Shown one piece after another: positions 4,231-11,783 of a DNA stretch of 36,377 bases. The position numbers and the translations under genes were made by a program. The notes beneath the pieces are model-generated. The model was not told where the DNA came from and ran no database searches. It saw only the letters and a list, made by a program, of their open reading frames with translations. Source of the DNA: a virus (taxonomy: Duplodnaviria > Heunggongvirae > Uroviricota > Caudoviricetes); IMG/VR virus record IMGVR_UViG_2917398303_000003; one strand, 5' to 3'. The first letter of the stretch is position 1. Each line of letters opens with the position of its first letter.

Positions 4231-5084
4231 GCACCATCCTGAAATGGGCGGGAAATAAAACCGCCATTATGTCCGAACTGAAAAAACATCTTCCTGCTGG
4301 CCCGCGACTGGTTGAACCTTTCGCGGGTTCATGTGCTGTGATGATGGAGACGGATTATCCCAGCTATCTGGTTGCGGATATTAATCCTGATTTAATCAAC
4401 CTCTATAAAAAGGTTGCCGCTGATTGTGAATCGTTTATATCTCGCGCCAGAGTTTTATTTGAGGAAGCAAACAGGGAGGTGGCTTATTACAACATAAGGC
4501 AGGAGTTTAATTACTCCACTGAAATTACTGATTTCATGAAAGCGGTATATTTCCTGTATCTCAATCGTCATGGTTACCGTGGGTTATGTCGCTATAACAA
4601 GAGCGGGCATTTCAACATTCCGTACGGTAATTATAAAAATCCGTATTTCCCTGAAAAAGAAATTCGCGCATTTGCAGAGAAAGCCCAGCGGGCAACGTTT
4701 ATCTGCGCGAGCTTTGATGAAACGCTGGCGATGCTGCAGGTGGGAGATGTGGTGTATTGCGATCCGCCTTATGACGGCACGTTTTCCGGTTATCACACTG
4801 ACGGCTTCACTGAAGATGACCAGTATCACCTGGCATCCGTTCTTGAACATCGATCATCTGAAGGTCATCCGGTCATTGTTTCTAACAGTGACACATCCCT
4901 GATTCGTTCGCTGTATCGCAATTTCACTCACCACTACATCAAGGCAAAACGCAGCATCGGCGTGTCGGCTGGCGAGAGTAAATCTGCAACAGAAATCATT
5001 GCTGTTTCCGGGGCGCGCTGCTGGGTGGGATTTGATCCTTCGCGTGGCGTGGATAGTTCTGCTGTGTACGAGGTGCGTGTATGA
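4227..5084 (+). CDS. dam: DNA adenine methyltransferase (Dam-like, N6-adenine MTase)
   Basis: ORF track 4167..5084. ATG at 4227 has a GGAGG RBS. SAM-binding EPFAGSCAV motif near the N-terminus and catalytic DPPY motif (CDPPYDGT). Confidence 0.85.
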
Positions 5085-7264
5085 GTCATGCCGATATGAG
5101 CGACTCTAGCGGCTTTAACGAGGCCGCTGCAGCATTTTCATGGAACGGCCCGAAAAAGGCCATAAACCCTTATCTGGACCCGGCGGAAGTTGCGCCGGTT
5201 TCTGCGCTTTCAAACCTGATCACTCTGTATGCTGCCGATAACGAGCAGGAACAGCTGCGCCGCGAGGAATTGAGTGAACAGGTCTGGGAGCGTTATTTCT
5301 TTAATGAATCCCGTGATCCTGTCCAGCGCGAAATGGAGCAGGATAAGCTCATTAGTCGGGCAAAGCTGGCGCATGAGCAGCAGCGTTTTAACCCGGACAT
5401 GGTCATTCTGGCGGACGTCAGCGCCCAGCCCACCCACATCAGCAAGCCGCTGATGCAACGTATCGAATACTTCAGCAGCCTGGGCAGGCCAAAGGCTTAT
5501 TCCCGCTATTTGCGTGAGACGATTAAGCCATGTCTGGAGCGACTGGATTGTGTACGCGACAGTCAGCTATCTACTTCTTTCCGTTTTATGGCAAGCCATC
5601 AAGGGCTGGAGGGCCTGCTGATCCTGCCTGAAATGAGTCAGGATCAGGTGAAACGCCTGTCCACCCTGGTAGCTGCGCATATGAGCATGTGTCTTGAGGC
5701 CGCTTGTGGTGATTTGTATACCAACGATGACGTAAAGCCAGAAGAAATCCGCAAGACATGGGAAAAAGTGGCAGCGGAAACCCTGCGTCTGGATGTTATC
5801 CCGCCTGCGTTTGAGAAACTTCGTCGGAAAAGAAACCGCCGCAAACCTGTGCCCTATGAACTCATACCGGGTTCGCTGGCACGTATGCTTTGCGCCGACT
5901 GGTGGTATCGAAAATTGTGGAAGATGCGTTGCGAATGGCGGGAAGAGCAGTTGCGCGCTGTCTGCCTGGTCAGCAAAAAAGCATCTCCTTATGTCAGCTA
6001 TGAAGCCGTGATGCATAAACGTGAGCAGCGCCGTAAGTCGCTGGAGTTTTTCCGTTCTCATGAACTGGTGAACGAAGACGGCGACACGCTGGACATGGAG
6101 GATGTGGTAAACGCCAGCAGCAGCAACCCTGCGCATCGCCGCAATGAGATGATGGCCTGTGTTAAAGGTCTGGAACTTATCGCGGAAATGCGCGGTGACT
6201 GCGCCGTTTTCTACACCATCACCTGTCCGTCACGTTTCCATTCCACGCTAAATAACGGCAGGCCCAACCCGACCTGGACAAATGCGACGGTAAGACAAAG
6301 CAGTGATTATTTGGTCGGCATGTTTGCTGCATTTCGTAAGGCGATGCACAAAGCCGGATTGCGCTGGTATGGCGTGCGGGTGGCTGAGCCGCATCATGAC
6401 GGTACAGTTCACTGGCACCTGTTGTGTTTTATGCGCAAAAAAGACCGCCGCGCCATCACTGCATTACTGCGTAAGTTTGCCATCCGTGAAGACCGCGAGG
6501 AGCTGGGCAATAACACGGGGCCGCGCTTTAAGTCTGAGTTGATTAACCCGCGCAAAGGAACGCCGACAAGCTACATCGCGAAATATATCAGTAAGAACAT
6601 TGACGGGCGTGGTCTGGCTAGCGAGATCAGCAAGGAAACGGGTAAATCCCTGCGTGATAACGCTGAATACGTGAATGCCTGGGCGTCTCTGCATCGTGTT
6701 CAGCAATTCCGCTTCTTTGGTATTCCGGGGCGTCAGGCTTATCGTGAACTGCGATTGCTGGCTGGTCAGGCGGCAAGGCAGCAGGGTGACAAAAAAGCAG
6801 GTGCGCCGGTACTGGATAACCCACGCCTTGATGCCATCCTGGCTGCTGCTGATGCTGGTTGTTTTGCCACCTACATCATGAAGCAGGGGGGCGTACTGGT
6901 TCCCCGCAAATATCACCTCATCAGAACCGCTTATGAAATCAACGAAGAGCCGACCGCCTATGGTGATCACGGCATTCGTATTTATGGCATCTGGTCACCC
7001 ATTGCAGAGGGCAAGATCTGTACTCATGCAGTGAAGTGGAAAATGGTTCGTAAGGCCGTTGACGTTAAGGAGGCGGCAGCCGACCAGGGCGCTTGCGCCC
7101 CTTGGACTCGTGGCAATAACTGTCCCCTTGGACTCGTGGCAATAACTGTCCCCTTGCTGAAAATTTGTACCAACAAGGGAAAGACAAATCAGCTGATGGG
7201 GATACCAGAACGGATATCACCCGTATGGATGACAAGGAGTTGCACGATTACCTGCACAGTATGA
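5081..7264 (+). CDS. A: Replication initiation protein A (rolling-circle HUH endonuclease), reading frame interrupted near the 3' end
   Basis: ORF track (727 aa). HUH-like motif TVHWHLLCF and paired tyrosines YIAKYISK. Start overlaps the dam stop (ATGA). Position matches P2 gene A. The last ~55 codons are read through a 26-bp tandem duplication and look frameshifted. Confidence 0.85.
7101..7152 (+). repeat. Exact 26-bp direct tandem duplication (2 copies of cttggactcgtggcaataactgtccc) inside the 3' part of gene A
   Basis: Read directly: 7101..7126 and 7127..7152 are identical, followed by a partial third copy (cttg). Confidence 0.9.
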
Positions 7265-7521
7265 ACAAAAAAGAGCGCCGGGAACTGGCTGCAAGGTTAC
7301 GCCTGGTGAAACCGAAACGGCGTAGAGACTACAAACAGCGAATTACAGACCATCAACGACAGCAGCTCGTCTATGAACTGAAGTCCAGAGGATTTGATGG
7401 CAGCGAGAAAGAGGTCGATTTACTCCTTCGCGGCGGCAGCATTCCGTCAGGAGCAGGCCAGCGTGTCTTCTATCGGAACCAGCGTTTGCAGGAAGATGAT
7501 AAGTGGCGGAACTTGTATTAA
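7153..7521 (+). pseudogene. A: Displaced C-terminal segment of A (frame restored if one 26-bp repeat copy is removed)
   Basis: ORF track 7165..7521 (118 aa). Its frame is open upstream back through the repeat. Removing 26 bp puts it in frame with the A ORF. Confidence 0.6.
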
Positions 7522-8225: not shown

Positions 8226-8645
8226 CTATAAATTAGTTTTTATTAGATAGTGCCTTTGTGCCCCTGCTTTAGGGAAATCAGGTAATGACATTTGAAGTAT
8301 ATAACCCTGTTTTTCATAAAAGGGGAGCGCCTGGAAGCTAAATGTATCGACAAGGCCATGAATACAACCGTTCATCAAACCTTCTTTCTCAGCCATGCTC
8401 ATAAGTTTGCTACCCAAACCGCCACTCCGTGCTGATTCACTCACCCAAAGATAATCAATACACAGCCATGGACCTTTCCTGTCCGCAATTAATCCACCTA
8501 CCATCTCTCCGATTTCATTTCTGCAGTAGACACCGATCTGTCCATTTTTACTAAAATCGATAAACTGAGCATTATAGCTTCTTAGCCCCGCTAACAGTTC
8601 TTCTCTATCATATTCAGTAACTTTATGAACTACTTGAATGTCCAT
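8226..8645 (-). CDS. GNAT-family N-acetyltransferase (139 aa), standalone cargo gene
   Basis: ORF track. Acetyl-CoA-binding motif of the R-x-x-G-x-G/A type ([11 protein letters not shown]). Opposite strand to neighbours. No adjacent small partner ORF is visible. Confidence 0.7.
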
Positions 8646-8905
8646 ACATATCCGTTTTAGTGATTATTTTATTCAGTGCTAAATGTTATAGATAAGTTTC
8701 CTTTATGTTTCAATGCATTGTTGTAAATTAAATCAATTTACCATTTCCGGGTCCCCGTTCCTTGCTCACAGCGAACCTTTAGCTTTGTTAGCTCGAATGT
8801 GTCGGTTTTCAAGTGGTCAATCAGATACGTACCTTCACCCCACTCGTTAGTGCATGTCTATGCCGCATGAATCCGCATGATCGTTTGAGGATCGTTTTTG
8901 CTGAG

Positions 8906-8931
8906 GCCCCCCCAGAACTGGCGGGCTTTTT
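8906..8931 (+). terminator. Candidate rho-independent terminator (GC-rich imperfect stem followed by TTTTT)
   Basis: ggcccccccagaactggcgggc can form a ~6-bp GC stem with one bulge, followed by ttttt at 8927..8931. Lies in the GC-richer cos-proximal segment. Confidence 0.3.
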
Positions 8932-8976
8932 GCTTATGTCATGCAGGTGCATGAAAATCACTGCATAAAGCGGGCA

Positions 8977-8995
8977 GGCGTGGCGGGGATACGAG
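8977..8995. other. Candidate cos site (19-nt cohesive-end sequence, P2/186-like)
   Basis: GGCGTGGCGGGGATACGAG followed by CGCGCGCT. From memory, the P2 left end is GGCGAGGCGGGGAAAGCAC followed by TGCGCGCT, and the 186 end begins GGCGTGGCGGGGA. Recollection only, not verified. Confidence 0.45.
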
Positions 8996-9066
8996 CGCGC
9001 GCTTGTGTTGGCCTCATACAGTGAATTGTAAATTAGTTTTACATATGTTATATAAAAGTTACGTTT

Positions 9067-10638
9067 ATGAAAATTGGAAATTTCGCTGTGAAATTGAAGG
9101 ATATTTTTTTAGGTAGTACTGATGCAAAAAATGAGTTATTGGTAAACAGCCCTGAAGAAGTGGAACGTTTTAAAAAACTTTATGTTGTTCCACCTGCGCT
9201 ACTCATTGAAAAATATTATTCAAATGATAAGTATTTTATCTCTGGTTTAAAGGGAACAGGGAAAACAGCTTTACTGCGTTATATTGCCCTGAAGTTAGAT
9301 GAGTCTGATAAAATCCACTCAAAATTCATTCTGTTCAAATCAGAAGTTGATGAGGAATCAAGGAAAGAATTATCTAGGGCATCAAGGCTTGGTATTGAGG
9401 AGGTTTTAGAAAATAGTGCTGATTACGATATATCAGATTATGAGGCTGTTTGGCGATGGTTTATATATAAAGCTATATCTAAAATGATAATTGAAAACGA
9501 TTTGGATGTTTTTCAAAATACTCCTTCTCTTGCAAATTTTCATGCGATAGTAAGCTCGGAAGTAGCTATTAAAAACAGAACAGGAATTATGCGGTTGATT
9601 CCTACTATAAAAAAAGGAAATATAGAAATAAGTAAATCTCCCAAGCTTAACCTTGATTTAAACTGGGGGCAGGATGGCGTGGCAAAAGTTGGTTTCTCTA
9701 AATTGGTCAAAAGTATTGATGCTATTTTTGATGAGTTAGTCCCGTCAACAGCAAGATTGAACATATTTTTTGATGAGTTGGAATTAAATTATTCAACTAA
9801 CAAACAATATCAACGTGATTCTCTTCTTATAAGAGATTTGATAGTCGTAATTGAAAAAATTAATGCTTTAGCAAAACGAAAAGGTTTTAAAATTTGCCTT
9901 TATGCTGCTATTCGCTCAGAGGTTATGAATTCAGTGGTTGCTTTAGGAAAAGAAATTAACAAACCATTGACGGATTTTGGTACGGATATATTTTGGAATA
10001 GACCTGGTGTTACTTCTGCACAACAACCACTGCTTCATATCGTTGAGCAAAGAATTAATAATGCTAGAATTGAAAAAGGTTTAACTCCATTAGATGGAGC
10101 AAGTTTATGGAAAGAGTACTTTCCAGATATAATACATAATAAGATACCTCAGACTTATCTTTTACATAATTCATGGTATAGGCCTAGAGATATAGTTAGG
10201 TTATTATTATCTGCTCAAGAAAGTTATCCAGAAGAAACAAAGTTTTCTACGCAATCATTGGAAGCAATACGCAAAAGATATTCTCAATTATCTTGGGTTG
10301 AATTGTCTGAGGAGTTGAAGGCTAAATATAAATCTTCAGAGATTGAAGCAATCAAAACTATTTTTTATGGATATAAGCAAATATCAACTCTTAATGAGTT
10401 TACTCAACATTGTGATGAGTTAAAAGAGTTTTATCCAGAAGTTGTTGACTTGCTGAGAAATCATTCGACTATGGCTTTGCTTAAAGATTTATTCAGAATT
10501 GGCGTAATTGGTAATTTCGATAAGCCGGCTCAAACTGAAAAAGGTAAGATGCGGTGGTCATTTAGGGGGGATGAAAGTATTCTTCCAAATCAGAAAATTT
10601 ATGTGCATAATGCACTGATTGCCTATTTTTCAATCTAG
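9067..10638 (+). CDS. Uncharacterised P-loop NTPase (523 aa); candidate single-gene anti-phage defence protein
   Basis: ORF track. Walker A GLKGTGKT at 9244..9267. Two hhhhDE Walker-B-like motifs (AIFDELV and IFFDELEL) around 9730..9780. An arginine-containing YRPRDIVRLL segment follows. No SD; a possible sigma70 promoter (TTGTAA at 9027..9032, TATAAA at 9051..9056) would make the mRNA nearly leaderless. The gene is AT-rich by eye. Confidence 0.8.
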   Translation: MKIGNFAVKLKDIFLGSTDAKNELLVNSPEEVERFKKLYVVPPALLIEKYYSNDKYFISGLKGTGKTALLRYIALKLDESDKIHSKFILFKSEVDEESRKELSRASRLGIEEVLENSADYDISDYEAVWRWFIYKAISKMIIENDLDVFQNTPSLANFHAIVSSEVAIKNRTGIMRLIPTIKKGNIEISKSPKLNLDLNWGQDGVAKVGFSKLVKSIDAIFDELVPSTARLNIFFDELELNYSTNKQYQRDSLLIRDLIVVIEKINALAKRKGFKICLYAAIRSEVMNSVVALGKEINKPLTDFGTDIFWNRPGVTSAQQPLLHIVEQRINNARIEKGLTPLDGASLWKEYFPDIIHNKIPQTYLLHNSWYRPRDIVRLLLSAQESYPEETKFSTQSLEAIRKRYSQLSWVELSEELKAKYKSSEIEAIKTIFYGYKQISTLNEFTQHCDELKEFYPEVVDLLRNHSTMALLKDLFRIGVIGNFDKPAQTEKGKMRWSFRGDESILPNQKIYVHNALIAYFSI

Positions 10639-10644
10639 AGTGAC

Positions 10645-10668
10645 GCGGTGCATTAAAAAATGCACCGC
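10645..10668. terminator. Perfect 10-bp inverted repeat (gcggtgcatt / aatgcaccgc, 4-nt loop) between convergent genes; possible bidirectional terminator
   Basis: Read directly. It starts 7 nt after the TAG stop of the 523-aa gene. There is no clear U-tract on either side. Confidence 0.35.
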
Positions 10669-10748
10669 ATTGAATATAGATAATGTAATTAATTAAAACA
10701 TGTTAATAATTATTGTGAGTTGTCGTGTAATATGTTTTTACTTTCGGT

Positions 10749-11783
10749 TTATGCGTCTAAATTATATTCTTTAAATTTTACGATTACGGTATTAGCCCAA
10801 TTGTTTAATTCTTCCAGTCGTTTTTGCAAAGGTATTAATTCATTTCGCACAAATACATTACTCGCCTTCTCCACATCTCCAAACCCCCCAACATTATTCG
10901 GCATAATCCCCATCATTTGCGGCGGCACGCGGTGCGCTGCCATCATGTCATCCCGACTCACGTTCTTGATGTTAAGAAATTCATCCTTCGCCGCGACTTC
11001 TGACAATGGGATGATCTGAAGCCCGTCTTTTTTGCCGTTAGGTGAGTACATAAACAGGTTGCGGAAGTTGCCAGGGCCTTTGGCGCTTTTCATCGCATTG
11101 CGGAGGTTGTTCACATCCTCCTGGTTCTGCGCGGCATCGGTCATGTACATGATGAAGCCTGCATGACTGCCGTTAATGTAATACTTGCGGCGGAACAGCG
11201 TGGCGGACTCGTTGAGCAGGGCGGACGGAATGGCAGAAAGATAACCGGGCAGGCCGTAGATCTCCTGGTTGATGTCCGGTTCCATCAGATGAAAGATGCT
11301 GCCTTTCGTGAACTGATACGGCTGGGTTGTCATACCGTATTGCACAAACCAGTAGGTATCCAGGTCTAACCCGCGTCGGGTGTATTTTGCCAGAGCAGGC
11401 TCAAGGGCGATAACTTCACCGAAGCGGTTCGTTCGTTTCTCCAGGTAGGCGTTACCAAATACCAGATAGTCCTGCACAAAACGTGAAAAAGCCTGCTGGC
11501 TGAGCAGCGGGTGAGGGATGTAGGTACTGGTCAGAATGTTGCATTTCACCGCAATTGGTGAACTGTGATGCACGGCAGCGCGGAAGGTGCGCGCCAGTCC
11601 GTCAAAGCTTACTGGCGGCTCATACCAGCGATCTGTCTGTACGCATTCCACATAGTCCAGCAGTTCGCGGCGGTCCAGAACAGGAACGGGATCGCCGAAG
11701 CTGAATGCTTCGGCTGTAGTTTGACTTTTAAGCTGGATCTGTTTCGTCGCCGCAGCTCGGTTTTTCTTACTCTTTCCCATCAA
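10749..11783 (-). CDS. Q: Portal protein (P2 gpQ homolog)
   Basis: ORF track (344 aa, the P2 gpQ length as I recall it). Overlaps the start of P. Same P-Q leftward operon as in P2. Confidence 0.9.
   Translation of the reverse strand: MMGKSKKNRAAATKQIQLKSQTTAEAFSFGDPVPVLDRRELLDYVECVQTDRWYEPPVSFDGLARTFRAAVHHSSPIAVKCNILTSTYIPHPLLSQQAFSRFVQDYLVFGNAYLEKRTNRFGEVIALEPALAKYTRRGLDLDTYWFVQYGMTTQPYQFTKGSIFHLMEPDINQEIYGLPGYLSAIPSALLNESATLFRRKYYINGSHAGFIMYMTDAAQNQEDVNNLRNAMKSAKGPGNFRNLFMYSPNGKKDGLQIIPLSEVAAKDEFLNIKNVSRDDMMAAHRVPPQMMGIMPNNVGGFGDVEKASNVFVRNELIPLQKRLEELNNWANTVIVKFKEYNLDA

Follow-up and report, generated by a model that had tools for sequence, protein, structure and literature searches.

The window analysed here is the whole stretch of 36,377 nucleotides (nt) in the virus record IMGVR_UViG_2917398303_000003, a P2-like prophage with integrase, CI repressor, gpA, cos, Q, P, O, N, M, L, lysis genes, tail genes and ogr. 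The interval that separates cos from the 3' end of the portal gene Q holds an AT-rich cassette whose single gene encodes a P-loop NTPase related to the P2 exclusion protein Fun(Z). We read the cassette as a horizontally acquired unit of the Fun(Z) family that would act as a single-gene superinfection defence, the protein being a bare nucleotide switch, and we put the probability of this reading as a whole at about 0.7. The result is mostly a correction. The preliminary description of the window proposed an undescribed system of no assignable family, whereas the gene is a divergent Fun(Z)-family gene in another P2 slot, with a canonical Walker B motif, and not a new system. The coordinates of the features are collected in Table 1.

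The protein is a full-length match to the NCBIfam model NF047389 ("P-loop ATPase, Sll1717 family"), scoring 300 bits where the cut-off is 75 (E 3.4e-89), with residues 15-520 aligned to positions 1-453 of the 454 in the profile. PHROG 13260, a group of unknown function, also matches the protein, and scans of the protein and 66 relatives against Pfam, PADLOC and PHROGs yielded no more than P-loop matches below threshold and groups of unknown function. In comparison with P2 Fun(Z), to which the protein is about 21% identical, BLASTP gave an E value of 3e-6, and hhalign with the family profile gave a probability of 99.6% (E 6.2e-24, 476 columns). A profile-profile comparison with the Fun(Z) clade gave 99.8% (E 1e-27, 488 columns) and covered both proteins end to end. 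Fun(Z) is placed in the NF047389 family because its 62-88%-identical relatives carry the NCBI/UniRef names 'P-loop ATPase, Sll1717 family' or 'funZ protein'. Together, these comparisons showed, at the level of sequence, that the window gene and fun(Z) are members of one family. Within it, as judged from the alignments, the window gene is related to P2 fun(Z) as a distant paralogue that belongs to a separate clade, rather than as an orthologue, because both the slot and the Walker B motif differ. The family is small: when 1.84 billion representatives were searched exhaustively with a profile, 1,626 clusters passed E<=1e-3 and 319 passed E<=1e-30. A plasmid protein search found full-length relatives with 24-26% identity on Bacillus plasmids, annotated 'FunZ', a label that leads to direct comparison with P2 fun(Z). 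A conserved full-length relative with 24% identity is present on 84 Bacillus plasmids, many of them the ~94-kb plasmids of B. anthracis (matches H53-H72; also H49-H52), where it is annotated either as 'hypothetical protein' or as 'FunZ', and the copy on pBT62B adjoins a KAP-family NTPase. Literature searches on 'Sll1717', PF24389/NF047389 and ATPase_2 in connection with phage defence turned up no paper that names the family, and in the library searched neither 'Sll1717' nor the family accession occurs.

Comparisons of the two proteins showed an overall likeness, with 516-523 amino acids (aa) in the window protein and 528 aa in P2 Fun(Z), homology from end to end and an equal order of the predicted elements. 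The motifs IKDLxLGxxDAxN, GxKGTGKTA and YRPRDI, an Arg on strand 4 and the motif RWxFR are common to both. Both genes are stand-alone nonessential cargo with a GC content of ~0.33 in a P2-type phage of ~0.50 GC (0.329 for the window gene and 0.328 for fun(Z)). However, Fun(Z) is encoded between the tail-fibre gene G and the sheath gene FI, whereas the window gene is located between cos and Q. The clearest distinction between the clades lies in the Walker B motif, which is FIDGID with an invariant D217-G218-I-D220 in the Fun(Z) clade and FFDELEL in the clade of the window protein. In addition, the insertion is all-helical in the Fun(Z) clade, whereas that of the window protein has a beta hairpin. 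According to the P2 record (NP_046777, 528 aa), fun(Z) is nonessential, acts in lysogenic conversion and confers sensitivity to fluorodeoxyuridine (FUdR), and the cloned gene blocks the growth of T5. In the BASEL study of Maffei et al., cloned P2 Fun/Z suppressed every one of the Tevenvirinae, Vequintavirinae and Markadamsvirinae, and its mechanism was described as unknown in 2021 (PMC8594841). T5-like, T-even and other virulent phages are among those stopped by P2 fun(Z). The preliminary description had cited old and tin as anti-phage genes of the cos flanks and overlooked fun(Z), the third exclusion gene of P2. Considering the homology to Fun(Z), the location in a defence hotspot and the neighbours of family genes, the gene quite likely protects the lysogen against other phages. 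The superinfection defence proposed earlier is better supported through the homology to Fun(Z), but does not stand as an undescribed system.

The left boundary of the cassette was located by sequence comparison. Backbone homology to P2-like phages ends at ~9002, just to the right of the cos core, and a three-way alignment of the window, a prophage of E. coli M7424 and an Enterobacter prophage showed a common sequence through the cos core that splits after GCGCGC. Beyond ~9002, the M7424 phage is wholly different, whereas the Enterobacter phage retains TTGTAA-N17-TATA(T/A)A with an altered spacer. The cos block (8846-9004) recurs in 47 phage records and in 1255 genomes of E. coli. From cosL to the Q stop the distance is 1753 nt in the window and 168 nt in the P2 record, the latter having been estimated before at ~130 bp. 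The GC content falls to 0.32 over 9001-10500 compared with 0.52-0.59 in the flanking Q and P genes, and the cassette as a whole has ~33% GC, in agreement with the original observation of an AT-rich segment encoding one large protein (GC 0.33 vs 0.51; the gene itself, 0.329, vs 0.512 for the remainder of the window). An ATPase identical to that of the window (100%) is found on two other contigs (L019 and L020), in which other genes replace the GNAT gene on the gpA side of cos with a breakpoint at ~8850. Because contigs with the identical ATPase have different gpA-side genes, the cargo to the left and that to the right of cos are exchanged independently. On the gpA side, a perfect 26-bp tandem duplication (CCCCTTGGACTCGTGGCAATAACTGT x2, 7098-7149) within gpA (5081-7521) breaks the frame of replication gene A, and residues 1-684 and 672-804 of the M7424 gpA align to two different window frames. 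The frameshift may reflect a replication-defective prophage or an assembly error.

Comparison of the locus across related P2-like prophages showed that the same slot holds other genes, confirming a variable island. In the closest E. coli prophage, that of M7424, cos and Q are common, but the slot between them is occupied by a different three-gene cassette (L001:6481-8149). The first gene of that cassette has an HNH-type nuclease domain and matches the PADLOC candidate PDC-M68A and CBASS-type endonuclease effectors. Neither the 50,697 phage records nor the 5,426 complete E. coli genomes searched contain a near-identical ATPase gene, whereas the GNAT gene is widespread in them. The gpA-cos-gpQ interval is a published defence hotspot of P2-like phages (PMC9122126), so that the initial view of the cos flanks as such a hotspot also stands. 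The cassette is thus variable cargo in the cos-proximal defence hotspot of P2. A role as P2 backbone was rejected, because near-identical phages are without the gene and the family is spread over different slots.

Family members occupy three slots in P2-like phages. The gpA-cos-Q slot is used in the window, in Enterobacter prophages, in one IMG/VR contig and in a distant P2-like phage (L036), the gpA of which is 31% identical. The tail-fibre/Z-fun slot holds a family member in the P2-like phage L021, and the S-V slot holds a relative with 23% identity in Klebsiella phage Kp4865-2 (L018:7001-8461), a phage with late proteins 97-99% identical to those of the window. In other viral contigs, an integrase adjoins the family gene in 6 of 15 loci and lysis genes do so in others; in Lactococcus phage CAP the family gene comes after the lysin gene. 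Outside these phages, the family gene is located beside a type III-A retron on a Serratia chromosome and beside a Pycsar pair in a Grimontia prophage. Family genes reside in integrase, resolvase or IS (insertion sequence) islets in Pseudomonas and Burkholderiales, and in Aeromonas a family member forms a single-gene insertion between housekeeping genes. No neighbour gene is conserved across these contexts. A 2,067-bp block with 88% identity is common to the Serratia chromosome (L008:7812-9858) and the tail-fibre slot of a P2-like phage (L021:7812-9872), and consists of 189 bp upstream, the gene and ~310 bp downstream. Since this block holds only the family gene, the unit of transfer is a single gene with its own flanks. 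The family gene is AT-richer than its surroundings in all 20 of 20 viral loci.

Several neighbouring loci were noted in the course of these comparisons. In the window, the G-FI slot, where P2 has fun(Z), holds an AT-rich Acyl_transf_3 gene (GC 0.36, 24920-26053, - strand), possibly a lysogenic-conversion gene that modifies surface polysaccharide. The S-V slot of the window holds an AT-rich open reading frame (ORF) of 271 aa (GC 0.34, 19165-19980, - strand) with no Pfam or PADLOC match and no similarity to P2 orf30. In the four Burkholderiales loci (L012-L015), a DUF4062 gene is located immediately 3' of the family member (~9572-10585), and its product could be a lineage-specific partner. The Enterobacter P2-like prophages (L002-L004) have a KAP-family NTPase or an AbiTii-domain gene on the integrase/CI side, and their pooled neighbours include strong PADLOC matches to PD-Lambda-1 and PDC-S20.

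The longest ORF of the gene, the only one in the cassette, runs from an ATG at 9067 to 10638 on the + strand and encodes the 523 aa reported originally. The real start is probably the GTG at 9088, giving a product of 516 aa, because the ATG of an 85%-identical Enterobacter gene aligns there, the codon at 9067 is unconserved and the homologues have 510-517 aa. Only a weak GGA is located 9 nt upstream of the GTG. In comparisons with two homologues of ~85% identity, the ratio of nonsynonymous to synonymous substitution rates (dN/dS) is 0.029 and 0.036, and a comparison of the Serratia copy with the phage copy gives 0.059, showing that the gene is under strong purifying selection. With 523 codons, a hidden Markov model E value of 3.4e-89 and a dN/dS of 0.03, the ORF is far beyond chance.

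Upstream of the gene, direct reading of the promoter-like element gave a spacing of N17 between TTGTAA and TATATA, or of N19 to the alternative -10 box TATAAA, instead of the N18 given earlier. TTGTAA and the -10 box are both kept in the flank of the Enterobacter homologue although the spacer has diverged. A generic promoter scan showed no enrichment in the AT-rich DNA of the cassette (9 sites vs 9.6 expected). The consensus promoter scan demands a T at position 6 of the -10 box and therefore did not pick the element at 9026-9054, where a promoter is plausible. Downstream, the perfect 10-bp hairpin described before was located at 10645-10668, and the folding energy of either strand is far lower than that of shuffled sequences (-17.3 kcal/mol with z -5.2 for the + strand, -19.2 kcal/mol with z -7.0 for the - strand). 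No T-run follows the stem on either strand. A bidirectional terminator acting on the ATPase and the Q transcripts is possible. Hairpins of unlike sequence are located at the equivalent place in the Enterobacter and Serratia homologues (z -4.3 and -4.25, respectively); a stem is also present in the L021 homologue, yet it folds no better than shuffles (z -1.2). Identity of the hairpin with the backbone terminator tQ was rejected, as P2 tQ differs in sequence and position.

The AlphaFold2 (AF2) models of the window protein and of a Fun(Z)-clade protein have similar confidence, with predicted local distance difference test (pLDDT) values of 83.3 and 82.6 and predicted template modelling (pTM) scores of 0.82 and 0.83, respectively. 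The first half of both models consists of N-terminal helices, strand 1 with the P-loop, strand 2, an insertion of ~130 residues and the Walker B strand. The second half consists of strand 4, strand 5, a helical lid, more helices and a domain of three helices and a beta wing. The predicted fold is thus that of an NTPase core of the ORC/Cdc6-STAND type that has acquired a large insertion and is accompanied by a helical lid and, at the C terminus, a winged helix. Structural searches of the model with Foldseek agree with this assignment, the best matches being Orc1/Cdc6 (2qby_A, E 7.8e-6) and the ATPase_2 proteins SSO1545 and PAB2304, with further matches to the N-terminal region of BrxC (9zll/9zdx), TnsC, Avs5 and RdrA. 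Searched by sequence with the family profile, the PDB yielded no significant match (best match Cdc6, E 0.02), and a Foldseek search of the viral BFVD models was uninformative, returning generic AAA+ and clamp-loader matches only and no Fun(Z). PF24389 (ORC-CDC6-like) matches 64 of the 66 family members, weakly. The distance between the Walker motifs, initially considered too long for an AAA+ core, is in the model accounted for by the ~130-residue insertion in an ORC/Cdc6-STAND-type core.

The invariance of residues was judged in alignments of relatives at 21-50% identity. The Walker A motif GLKGTGKT lies exactly where it had been placed, at 9244-9267, and its residues G60, G63, G65 and K66 do not vary even in relatives with as little as 21% identity; the corresponding motif of the Fun(Z) clade, GEKGTGKT, is also invariant. 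Both of the D-E motifs noted before exist, but only IFFDELEL is on the Walker B strand (predicted strand 230-238), where D236 and E237 are invariant across the divergent alignment and a second acidic residue follows three positions past the Walker B Asp. AIFDELV (aa 215-221) is within a predicted helix of the insertion and is a decoy rather than a Walker B motif. The insertion has a helix at 96-109, a disordered segment at 110-121, a helix at 126-143, further helices and the beta hairpin. The lid helices span residues 321-386, and YYRPRDI is common to the window protein and P2 Fun(Z). In the winged helix, the residues R477, G482, N483, R496 and R500 are conserved, with GxIGN and RWxFR common to Fun(Z), and W310 and G482 are further invariant residues of the protein. 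This clade probably hydrolyses ATP, as judged from its canonical Walker B motif, because the D-E pair is kept, unlike the D-G-I-D of the Fun(Z) clade. In 1 of the relatives a C-terminal extension consists of a transmembrane segment and DUF6273, and the other extensions, found in a minority of relatives (P0192, P0258, P0214, P0255, P0238 and P0268 in all), are S1/OB nucleic-acid-binding domains, sometimes in 2-3 repeats.

Table 1. Coordinates of the features in the cos-Q region of the window (residue numbers refer to the 523-aa ORF)
Feature	Position	Strand	Remarks
GNAT acetyltransferase	8226..8645	-	separate cargo, gpA side of cos (P2 tin/old position)
P2-type cos core GGCGTGGCGGGGATACGAG	8977..8995	.	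direct reading; agrees with P2 cosL at 14/19 positions
AT-rich cargo cassette	9003..10748	+	promoter-like region, one gene and hairpin, between cos and 3' end of Q
Promoter-like TTGTAA(9026-9031)-N17-TATATA(9049-9054)	9026..9054	+	direct reading; putative
Fun(Z)-family (NF047389) P-loop NTPase gene	9088..10638	+	probable GTG start, 516 aa
Walker A / P-loop GLKGTGKT	9244..9267	+	aa 60-67
Insertion, strand 2 to Walker B	9352..9756	+	aa ~96-230, AF2 secondary structure
Walker B strand IFFDELEL	9763..9786	+	aa 233-240; D236, E237 and second acidic E239
Invariant Arg283	9913..9915	+	end of strand 4 (276-283; AAIRSE), sensor-1 position
RPRD motif	10180..10191	+	aa 372-375; start of lid helix, sensor-2-like; R374 invariant
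C-terminal winged-helix-like domain	10390..10605	+	aa 442-513; three helices and beta wing
Perfect 10-bp hairpin GCGGTGCATT-AAAA-AATGCACCGC	10645..10668	.	between convergent ATPase and Q genes
Portal gene Q	10749..11783	-	backbone, right edge of slot; 94% identity to E. coli M7424 portal protein

In comparison with known NTPases, the window protein shares with the STAND NTPases (Avs/NLR-like; SSO1545, PAB2304) the P-loop core, the helical domain and the winged helix, as well as a Walker B motif with a second acidic residue three positions on and an invariant Arg closing strand 4. However, it has neither the C-terminal repeat sensor nor the N-terminal effector domain, it has RPRD instead of a literal GxP, and the Pfam STAND models remain below threshold (NACHT 15 bits vs a cut-off of 26.7). 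Leipe et al. in 2004 reportedly characterised STAND proteins by a Walker A motif, a Walker B motif with an extra acidic residue and an Arg ending the next strand. By these criteria, the pattern of motifs suggests a place nearer to STAND within the ORC/Cdc6-STAND continuum. The hallmark of the ORC/Cdc6 clade, also found in BrxC, is a helix-extension-helix after strand 2, a helical bundle and a winged helix (PMC12839542), and all of these elements are predicted in the model of the window protein. Differences from the clade are that no invariant arginine finger was found among the divergent relatives and that the insertion is much larger; nor is the window protein the replication initiator of the phage, which uses gpA. 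The BREX protein BrxC has ~1200 aa and is encoded with pglX, pglZ and brxA/B, whereas the window protein is ~700 residues shorter and has no BREX genes nearby. Old, GajA and AriA are likewise P-loop defence proteins carried by prophages or hotspots, and Old is also located in the gpA-cos-Q region of P2, but they combine an ABC-type ATPase with TOPRIM, whereas the window protein belongs to another ATPase class without TOPRIM. In Pfam the window protein has no match to AAA_15, AAA_21 or TOPRIM, and the PADLOC models of GajA and PtuA gave no more than marginal P-loop matches, for the protein and in a few relatives, so that the earlier statement that it is not Old, GajA or AriA holds. Roles of the Old, GajA, AriA, BrxC and TnsC types were rejected on domain content and context.

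A number of observations weigh against a single-gene superinfection defence. PADLOC v2, a search proposed in the preliminary description, gave no significant match for the protein or for the 66 relatives. At ~21% identity to Fun(Z), the target range and even the function could differ. No nuclease, TIR, SIR2, protease or transmembrane domain was found in the 516-523 aa protein by Pfam or in the AF2 model, and thus no effector domain that would account for a block of the phage or the killing of the cell. No invariant arginine finger was found across the divergent relatives, and a conserved, low-confidence GKEINK loop (aa 294-299) lies in the region expected for it. Only the winged helix, the nearest proteins in fold and, in a minority of relatives, the S1/OB fusions point to a sensing of nucleic acid. 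The fun gene is described, in a paper that cites Nilsson 2004, as flanked by inverted repeats allowing site-specific exchange (PMC8987985), whereas no inverted repeats flank the cassette, the pairs found being low-complexity matches inside the ORF. The cargo of the hotspot is not all defensive, since a putative partition system is present there in about one in four P2-like phages, and of the further hotspot systems that were cloned 3 of 8 gave protection (PMC9122126). Finally, among 94 neighbours in viral contigs PADLOC recognised few known defence genes, and guilt by association is therefore weak in these contigs.

These observations bear on the alternatives to differing degrees. The protein could act as sensor or switch for an effector encoded separately, elsewhere in the host or the prophage, on which it would depend, and would then be half of a two-part system. 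This is in keeping with the missing effector domain and with the habit of STAND, ORC-like and AAA+ defence ATPases, such as the fold matches BrxC and RdrA, of pairing with effectors, and a DUF4062 gene does directly follow the family gene in the four Burkholderiales loci. However, the neighbours are otherwise unconserved, the gene is alone in the three P2 slots and in Aeromonas, the shared mobile block holds just the family gene and cloned P2 fun(Z) protects by itself, so that we regard a two-part system as improbable. About equally improbable is a cargo gene outside defence, the product of which could, for instance, regulate the replication of prophage or host in the manner of ORC/DnaA, serve maintenance or act in counter-defence. 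Replication initiators and loaders are indeed the best fold matches, P2 hotspots also contain partition systems and toxins, the PADLOC-recognised neighbours in viral contigs are sparse, and P2 fun(Z) alters host physiology, as seen in the FUdR sensitivity. Yet the homologue Fun(Z) has a demonstrated anti-phage phenotype, the gene is dispensable and patchy among otherwise near-identical phages, and family genes adjoin a retron on a chromosome and a Pycsar system in another prophage.

Two further explanations are far less credible than these. For a defence family unrelated to any known one, it could be said that Pfam gives sub-threshold P-loop matches only, that PADLOC gives none and that no paper naming the family was found; however, the full-length NF047389 membership and the end-to-end homology to Fun(Z) already refute it. 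An ATPase of the TnsC/MuB/IstB type, choosing targets for a transposon, is just as hard to sustain, given that no transposase is linked in the window or in most loci and that the cassette is without terminal inverted repeats and sits between conserved phage genes.

For the preferred reading of a Fun(Z)-family superinfection defence, a mechanism can be outlined. The protein would be a bare ORC/Cdc6-STAND-type nucleotide switch without an enzymatic effector domain, and a cue of infection would trigger its ATP-dependent oligomerisation. The cue would most plausibly be phage nucleic acid or replication intermediates, bound by the winged helix and the insertion, and the oligomer itself would then block phage DNA replication or expression, or poison the infected cell. 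Judging from the winged helix, the S1/OB fusions and the proteins nearest in fold, we propose only tentatively that the protein is an effector-less switch that oligomerises on a phage-derived cue, plausibly nucleic acid. It is somewhat more doubtful still that the Fun(Z)/Sll1717 proteins in general are effector-less immune proteins consisting of a bare nucleotide-binding oligomerisation domain ('bare NOD'), in which oligomerisation on phage nucleic acid would be the antiviral act itself.

The 'Sll1717-family P-loop ATPases', which are widely annotated but uncharacterised, and Fun(Z) form one family by profile comparison. Its members circulate as single-gene cassettes in at least three P2 slots, in other prophages, on plasmids and in small chromosomal islets. 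By prediction, the family represents a minimal switch of the ORC/Cdc6-STAND type that has a winged helix but no effector domain, and the analysis supplies concrete residues for mutation. Because PADLOC v2 misses this clade, defences of the Fun(Z) type may be under-counted in prophage surveys. If the 'bare NOD' reading is true, the clade represented by the window gene would be a hydrolysis-competent version and could be a tractable model for the mechanism of P2 Fun/Z.

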